Origin: Naegleria gruberi
Lineage: Eukaryota
DNA length: 64,000 nt
Reading direction: 5' to 3' (one strand)
NCBI GenBank assembly: GCA_000004985.1
Contig: GG738846.1
A program made the position numbers and the translations under genes. Below the pieces are notes generated by a model. That model was not told where the DNA came from and ran no database searches. It saw only the letters and a program-made list of their open reading frames with translations. Positions 4,605-5,532 of the stretch are shown piece by piece; position 1 is the stretch's first letter; each line of letters starts with the position of its first letter.

Positions 4605-5532
4605 ATGAATCAATCGAATGCCTATCACTATATGTTTAAATTTATAATTATTGGAGATTCTGGTGTCGGAAAATCCTGTATTCTGTTACAATTTACTGAC
4701 GACAGGTTTGATGCCAGATCCGAATGTACAATAGGTGTAGAATTTGGAACAAAAACCATTGATCTCGGATCAAAATATAATCACTTGAAAATCAAGACAC
4801 AAATATGGGATACAGCTGGTCAAGAAGGTAAGTAGAAAGATTTAAAAATTTAATTGACCAACACTAATGAAAAGCTTTTAGATCGTATGTAGAAATGATT
4901 TTATTTGTTATTAATTAATAATTGATTTATTTAATATGGTGGATTTGTTTTTGAAATTGTAAAATAGTATTGCAAGATCGTAGGTTTTAATTTGATATTT
5001 ATTATTAAAATTCAATGTATGGATTTTGAATAGTTATTATCGTGGATCTGCTTGTGCTTTTTTAGTTTATGATATTACGAGAAGGAGTACTTTTCAATCA
5101 GTTCAAACGTGGTTAACTGATGCTCTCAGCAACAGTTCAAATCATTCCCAATTGGTTGTTGTTCTCGTTGGAAACAAGTCTGATTTAAAATCTCAAAGAC
5201 AAGTTTCATATAAGGAAGGTTTAGAATTTGCAGAAAAGAATAACATTCACATATTTATGGAAACATCAGCAAAAACAGCAGAAAATATACACAAATCATT
5301 TTATGAAAGTGCAGAGATAATTTATAGAAAGGTTTTAAATCATGAAATAATGGTTGGATTTGATGATGATGTTGTTGGTTCTGGTGTTAAGGGTGGAGTG
5401 CTTTTGGCCAACCAACAATCGAATATGTCCACAACCCCTTCGAATACAAATCGAGTGAGAGGAAGTGATTTAGCAAATCAAACCTCTCCTCAAAAAACAG
5501 AAAAGAAAGAAGGGTGTTGTGGTGGAAAGTAA
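4605..5532 (+). CDS. Rab2/Rab4-like small GTPase, four exons including two micro-exons: join(4605..4827,4875..4884,4968..4979,5034..5532)
   Basis: Exon 1 encodes [35 protein letters not shown]...WDTAGQE, ending at the donor G|GTAAGT. The last exon starts ...[18 protein letters not shown]...GNKSDL...ETSAK...CCGGK. The switch-II segment missing between them is supplied exactly by a 10-nt exon (cttttagatc) and a 12-nt exon (tattgcaagatc). Splicing these gives ...DTAGQEAFRSIARSYYRG..., matching Rab2 QESFRSITRSYYRG. All three introns are GT..AG (47, 83 and 54 nt) and phases are consistent. The track's 5026 start is a TTG. Confidence 0.7.

Follow-up and report, generated by a model that had tools for sequence, protein, structure and literature searches.

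The Rab gene and its surroundings

A Rab GTPase gene lies at positions 4605–5532 on the plus strand of the window, that is, of the whole 64,000-nucleotide stretch of Naegleria gruberi contig GG738846.1 that was analysed. The first-pass annotation had described this gene as interrupted by two micro-exons in succession, 10 and 12 nt long, and the coordinates, strings, splice signals and repeated 8-mer that it gave were each recovered base for base in the sequence. The proposed features are the following (a slash marks an exon–intron boundary):

4605–4827, plus strand: exon 1, 223 nt (74 codons and 1 nt), ending CAA GAA G and followed by GTAAGT
4828–4874, plus strand: intron 1, 47 nt, phase 1, AAG/GTAAGT...CACTAATGAAAAG/, its donor matching the consensus in full and a CTAAT resembling a branch site
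4875–4884, plus strand: micro-exon 1 (exon 2), 10 nt, CTTTTAGATC, preceded by GAAAAG and followed by GTATGT
4885–4967, plus strand: intron 2, 83 nt, phase 2, ATC/GTATGT...AAAATAG/
4968–4979, plus strand: micro-exon 2 (exon 3), 12 nt, TATTGCAAGATC, preceded by AAATAG and followed by GTAGGT
4980–5033, plus strand: intron 3, 54 nt, phase 2, ATC/GTAGGT...TTGAATAG/
5034–5532, plus strand: exon 4, following GAATAG, completing Ser82 and encoding YYRG...NKSD...ETSAK...CCGGK, with the stop codon TAA at 5530–5532

When the four exons were joined by a script, a coding sequence of 744 nt was obtained, in frame and free of stops, which translated into 247 amino acids reading ...DTAGQEAFRSIARSYYRG.... Exon 1 extends from the ATG to DTAGQE and the first base (G) of the Ala75 codon, and it contains the P-loop GDSGVGKS, switch I TIGVEF and the G3 motif DTAGQE; the N-terminus that it encodes agrees with those of the N. 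fowleri protein and of the protein from metagenome contig L002 described below. Micro-exon 1 supplies the rest of Ala75, Phe76, Arg77 and the first two nucleotides of Ser78, and micro-exon 2 supplies the rest of Ser78, Ile79, Ala80, Arg81 and the first two nucleotides of Ser82. Both are thus internal exons of 15 nt or less, each between two introns, and the three introns fall within 22 nt of coding sequence. Branch-like sites (CACTAAT; TTGAA/TTGAAT) were visible near the acceptors. The 8-mer AGATCGTA was present twice, at 4880–4887 and at 4975–4982.

The upstream neighbour is an ORF for an RsmB/F (NOP2-like) methyltransferase on the plus strand, and the downstream neighbours, on the minus strand, are a PDCD5-like dsDNA_bind gene and a TPR protein. 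The PDCD5-like gene (5649–6103, minus strand; Pfam dsDNA_bind, 2.9e-27) faces the Rab gene tail-to-tail and encodes a long acidic C-terminal tail; its intron at 5900–5973 is 74 nt long, in phase 1, with the boundaries AGAT/GTAAGT...AATAATAG/TG. Beyond it, at 6170–9373 on the minus strand, the ORFs 8108–9373, 7622–8077 and 6170–7582 (the last with TPR/TTC21-like matches) are separated by gaps of only 30–40 nt. None of these gaps could be bridged by one intron with a donor of the consensus type, and small exons may lie there.

Splice signals, gene product and orthologues

Reference introns were collected by screening adjacent same-strand ORFs in the window for joining introns, and eight junctions were confirmed by a Pfam domain crossing them:

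27995–28061, plus strand: intron, 67 nt, Glucosamine_iso
29030–29071, plus strand: intron, 42 nt, PIG-L
44359–44396, plus strand: intron, 38 nt, Methyltransf_3
62232–62296, plus strand: intron, 65 nt, NT5C
58243–58282, minus strand: intron, 40 nt, DEAD
48640–48715, minus strand: intron, 76 nt, Guanylate_cyc
11174–11220, minus strand: intron, 47 nt, A_deaminase
5900–5973, minus strand: intron, 74 nt, dsDNA_bind

These introns measured 38–76 nt, with the donors GTAAGT (five), GTATGT (two) and GTAGGT (one) and the acceptors TAG, AAG or CAG. The three Rab introns (47, 83 and 54 nt; donors GTAAGT, GTATGT and GTAGGT; acceptors AAG or TAG) resemble them. The introns of N. fowleri and L002 share this style and go down to 36 and 42 nt. 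One feature counts against the micro-exons: the exonic bases before donors 2 and 3 are ATC/ and not the usual AG/. The eight Pfam-validated introns serve as a local, if small, reference for splice signals in N. gruberi. Two of them belong to three ORFs at 27473–29597 (plus strand) that appear to be one gene, a glucosamine-6-phosphate isomerase/deaminase (Glucosamine_iso) fused to a PIG-L/LmbE-type de-N-acetylase, the Pfam matches crossing both junctions (introns 27995–28061 and 29030–29071).

The spliced product contains a complete Ras/Rab domain (Pfam Ras, 2.3e-55, residues 12–178), with the G motifs GDSGVGKS at 17, TIGVEF at 42, DTAGQE at 69, NKSD at 129 and ETSAK at 158. The RabF1–F5 motifs of Pereira-Leal and Seabra are said to read IGVDF, KLQIW, RFRSIT, YYRGA and LVYDIT; all five have a counterpart in the spliced product (IGVEF, KTQIW, AFRSIA, YYRGS and LVYDIT), and the third, RabF3, is the one encoded by the micro-exons and missing in the public gene model. 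A C-terminal double-cysteine prenylation motif of the CCXXX type, CCGGK, is also present. Among solved structures the best matches were human Rab2A (1z0a; 2.8e-60, 207 bits) and Rab2B (2a5j; 6.2e-59, 203 bits), with Rab14 (198 bits) and Rab4 (183 bits) close behind. The AFRSIARS segment paired with SFRSITRS of human Rab2A 1z0a, ungapped across DTAGQE...YYRG, and the named database matches of the spliced protein were mostly Rab2. The Rab2 class given in the first-pass annotation is favoured by these matches, Rab2A and Rab2B coming out narrowly ahead of Rab14 and Rab4, and "Rab2-like" would be a fair name for the predicted product. It shares with canonical Rab2 (RAB2A 1z0a, RAB2B 2a5j) the G and Rab-family motifs and an ungapped switch II, and differs from it by a 4-residue insertion before beta-3 and by a long Ser/Thr/Asn-rich tail ending in CCGGK. 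The gene also differs in that it lacks the canonical Rab2 intron positions at nt 46, 118, 474 and 543 (sponge, lizard, Anaeramoeba).

The protein search covered a collection of 5.8 billion proteins, in which only two close relatives were present: P0002 of N. fowleri (locus L001), 78% identical, and P0003 of metagenome contig L002, 77% identical. The three proteins are 75–78% identical pairwise. A metagenome scan for closer relatives returned only Rabs of 47% identity or less, which were left out of the comparisons. The neighbours of the Rab gene differ between species, with an IFT122-like gene and unknown ORFs in N. fowleri versus the NOP2-like, PDCD5-like and TPR genes in N. gruberi; local synteny is not conserved, so that the genes are taken as orthologues from best-hit similarity and from idiosyncratic sequence that they have in common.

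In both relatives the segment corresponding to the micro-exons lies within one exon. The N. fowleri locus reads GAA GCC TTT CGA TCC ATT GCT CGA TCG TAC TAT CGA (peptide QEAFRSIARSYYR) and L002 reads GAA ACT TTC CGA AGT ATT GCA AGA TCA TAC TAT AGA (peptide QETFRSIARSYYR), both encoding (A/T)FRSIARSYYR contiguously. Over the eight micro-exon codons, N. gruberi and N. fowleri showed six synonymous and no non-synonymous differences, and over the GTPase domain dN was 0.096 and dS 1.59 (dN/dS of about 0.06). At a dS of about 1.6, 22 untranslated bases would be randomised; the micro-exons have thus been under protein-level selection and are predicted to be translated. In the searched protein collection, no N. 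gruberi transcript-derived protein was found with the full-length query or with a junction-spanning peptide query, and the best new match of the latter, P0121, was simply the N. fowleri genomic exon.

The deposited models of the two relatives call for two observations of their own. On L002 (365–1201), the 278-aa P0003 reads through two introns (36 and 42 nt) and translates in-frame TAG codons, an artefact of gene calling by non-eukaryotic rules; once spliced, the protein has 243 aa and ends in GGCCGGGK. The N. fowleri model P0002 (L001 4150–4287) ends in ...STCACAGSRRETGE and has no cysteine motif at the very C-terminus, where N. gruberi has CCGGK and L002 CCGGGK. Either the 3' end of the model is wrong or the standard prenylation site has been lost.

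All GT-AG paths with up to four introns were enumerated through positions 4760–5100. There were 388 in-frame and stop-free paths, among which the micro-exon path had the highest score against the N. fowleri orthologue and was the only one to match it without gaps. As a control, the 206-nt interval was dinucleotide-shuffled 500 times with its donor and acceptor ends kept. The real sequence scored 210, as compared with 169 ± 5 for the best shuffled path (maximum 188 in 500 shuffles), about 8 SD above. The match of the micro-exon peptide is beyond chance.

Weighing the splice models

The existence of two consecutive micro-exons encoding the core of the Rab switch II region, as first proposed from the letters of this stretch, is backed by the orthologues, by the path enumeration and its shuffles, by the typicality of the introns and by the way in which the public model skips this segment. 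It is highly likely that three short U2-type GT-AG introns leave two constitutive internal exons, one of 10 and one of 12 nt. With one base each added from exon 1 and exon 4, the micro-exons would encode Ala-Phe-Arg-Ser-Ile-Ala-Arg-Ser, which corresponds to the RabF3 motif and to the point where the switch II helix begins, and a functional mRNA would need both of them. The junction string predicted for this mRNA is GGTCAAGAAGCTTTTAGATCTATTGCAAGATCTTATTATCGTGG. In this short-intron organism each intron would be recognised as a unit (intron definition), and an exon of 10–12 nt would be too small for the complexes of both flanking introns, so that the introns would probably be removed one after another, each removal fusing a micro-exon to a longer exon. 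We infer the actual inclusion of the micro-exons in the mRNA as well as the order of splicing, the latter from the established intron-definition views and from plant data. In plants, the introns on either side of an exon of 15 nt or less are spliced out in succession, and mis-annotation of exons of this size is widespread (PMC8831610).

The micro-exons could be real and alternatively used, regulated or noisy isoforms existing beside the full mRNA. This would add to the micro-exon model and not replace it, and we consider it unlikely. Skipping the 12-nt exon alone (4605–4827/4875–4884/5034–5532) gives an in-frame, stop-free path reading ...AFRSYYRG..., while skipping the 10-nt exon shifts the frame. 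In other systems very short exons are prone to skipping or to intron retention (PMC8831610), and both types of event were detected in N. gruberi RNA-seq (PMC6142364, which cites the data set PRJEB23822). However, loss of IARS from switch II would probably inactivate a Rab, so that such isoforms would be by-products; occasional mis-splicing products are conceivable, as something other than functional Rabs.

The first-pass annotation had read the AGATC/GTA shared by the ends of both micro-exons as a sign of a local duplication or of a shared splicing enhancer. In such a scenario micro-exon-plus-intron units would have been duplicated in tandem, or intron 3 would have been copied into the upstream AGATC^T site, and in its favour both units end in AGATC/GTA and both introns interrupt, in phase 2, a Ser codon preceded by Arg. 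This is very improbable, and a local tandem duplication of micro-exon units was rejected, since neither the introns nor the exon-plus-intron units showed similarity beyond composition. In local alignments of introns 1–3 against one another, the observed score was reached by 302 to 854 of 1000 dinucleotide shuffles, the figure for intron 2 against intron 3 being 302. Within the 64-kb window, no copies of the Rab introns of the introner or transposon-like repeat type were found elsewhere. FRS and ARS are neighbours in all Rabs, and they are contiguous in the relatives that have no introns there, which implies that the exonic repeat predates the introns. In the long ORFs of the window, AGA accounts for 68% of the Arg codons and TCN for 75% of the Ser codons, and the probability that both Arg-Ser dipeptides read AGATC is about 0.26. 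Arg-Ser is therefore expected to be written AGATC here, and the donor consensus itself begins with GTA; the introns being unrelated, codon usage and donor consensus suffice, and the 8-mer needs neither a duplication nor a dedicated enhancer. That both introns split a copy of one hexamer at an identical point, AGATC^T, is a mild coincidence, and splicing creates two AGATCT sites that are absent from the genomic DNA. Folding of 4800–5060 gave no sign of an RNA structure that would bring splice sites close to each other (z-score −0.59).

The best database match of the spliced protein, at 97% identity, is the deposited P0001 "rab family small GTPase [Naegleria gruberi]" of 241 aa. It corresponds to a different structure:

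4832–5033, plus strand: single intron of the public model, 202 nt, donor GTAGAA, P0001 corresponding exactly to 4605–4831 plus 5034–5532

The two ORFs had been said not to be directly joinable. Taken literally this did not hold: joining 4827 to 5034 is out of frame, but an in-frame join exists through the GT at 4832. The substance of the statement stood, as this only direct join drops AFRSIARS and leaves a crippled protein. P0001 reads ...DTAGQEGNYYRG... (GQEGNYYRG) and lacks AFRSIARS, and with it RabF3 and the beginning of the switch II helix; the annotated junction is GGTCAAGAAGGTAATTATTATCGTGG. In favour of the public model, its reading frame has no stops and is maintained with a single intron, where the micro-exon model needs three; it is also the deposited version. 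Against it, it removes a RabF3/switch II core that is kept by every close and distant homologue, and its donor GTAGAA, found in none of the eight reference introns, is weak and overlaps the perfect AAG/GTAAGT donor at 4828, 4 nt upstream. Nor can it account for 22 "intronic" bases that, in the right phases and with their own GT-AG signals, spell the orthologous peptide at a dS of about 1.6. It is scarcely credible that the 241-aa Rab without AFRSIARS is the true product; we judge the 202-nt intron to be an artefact of gene finding or, at best, the mark of a minor isoform without function, and the public model is very probably a mis-annotation skipping both micro-exons, which bears out the expectation that exons of this size would be overlooked by gene finders.

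Least credible of all is a decaying pseudogene, in which insertions would have split an old exon, leaving the micro-exons as its pieces, and the locus would yield no uninterrupted, functional transcript. In favour of this reading, N. gruberi alone of the three relatives has such an exon structure, but the remaining gene has an intact frame of 247 codons with all G motifs and the CCGGK prenylation tail, its dN/dS against N. fowleri is about 0.06, and the inserted pieces start with GT(A)(A/T/G)GT, end with AG and have the lengths of local introns, so that they would be spliced.

Intron turnover and relation to known micro-exons

The micro-exons were absent from N. fowleri, from L002 and from three canonical Rab2 genes (sponge, lizard and Anaeramoeba), so that the conservation in related genomes that the first-pass annotation proposed to look for was not observed. 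In N. fowleri the introns lie in the Ala codon of DTAGQE (phase 1), after GVGK and at NKT^DL, and in L002 between Q and E of DTAGQE (phase 0) and after GVGK. The phase-0 intron right after GVGK is common to N. fowleri (L001 3073–3152) and L002 (440–475), and N. gruberi does not have it. Counted from the D codon of DTAGQE, the positions are +7 in N. fowleri, +15 in L002 and +19, +29 and +41 in N. gruberi. The three canonical genes have an intron at 0 (Anaeramoeba), at +6 (lizard) or none, and in none of the three is there an intron inside FRSI(T/A)RSYY. Conversely, the canonical positions listed above are missing from all three Naegleria-type genes. The introns that form the micro-exons thus appear to be specific to the N. 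gruberi lineage among the genes compared in the available sample. With three roughly equidistant taxa, a gain in N. gruberi and a loss in the others cannot be told apart. The situation is reminiscent of near-intron pairs and intron position turnover, in that the introns around DTAGQE lie within a few bases of one another in homologous genes, with the difference that only six genes are considered here, among which gain, loss and sliding are indistinguishable.

It is possible, although rather unlikely, that the micro-exons are recent in the N. gruberi lineage and result from two independent intron insertions into AGATC^T copies (the palindrome AGATCT, 12 nt apart) beside a third intron. Each of five related genes has an intron near this stretch, no two of them in the same place. 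This hypothesis would imply that sequence-targeted, or at least hotspot-prone, intron gain is still active in Naegleria. No paper addressing intron gain between Naegleria species was found in a literature search, nor did the search return any paper linking Naegleria with micro-exons in the present sense.

In animals, neuronal micro-exons of 3–27 nt are alternatively spliced in an SRRM3/4-dependent manner, are usually multiples of 3, and have long flanking introns and a dedicated enhancer machinery. The N. gruberi pair is similar in that tiny exons alter or complete a protein surface and need special care in alignment. It differs in that the exon of 10 nt is not a multiple of 3, that both exons are required for function and that no regulator is implied. 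Plant genes contain ultra-short exons of 1–15 nt with canonical GT-AG flanks; these are frequently situated within conserved domains of the protein, and modelling guided by homology can recover them (Yu et al. 2022, PMC8831610). The N. gruberi micro-exons are like the plant ones in size, GT-AG flanks, location in a conserved domain and failure of the annotation (PMC8831610). The plant exons are mostly conserved across land plants and backed by RNA-seq, whereas the N. gruberi pair is predicted from sequence and is absent in two relatives; in addition, it is found in a heterolobosean protist, its members are directly adjacent and the introns are very short (47–83 nt). Tiny coding exons and their systematic mis-annotation are already well documented, above all in plants (PMC8831610); what is new is the adjacent pair of 10 and 12 nt in a protist Rab switch region. 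The Naegleria pair needs no new mechanism.

The result amounts to the correction of a public gene model. A deposited N. gruberi protein without its switch II core would pass for a degenerate Rab in comparative studies of membrane traffic. The very probable occurrence of exons of 10–12 nt, even paired, in a heterolobosean with few and short introns indicates that annotation should include a homology-guided rescue of micro-exons. The locus offers a compact natural test case for a short-intron spliceosome confronted with exons too small for binding on both sides and, once more Naegleria genomes are compared, for the gain and loss of introns within a few bases.
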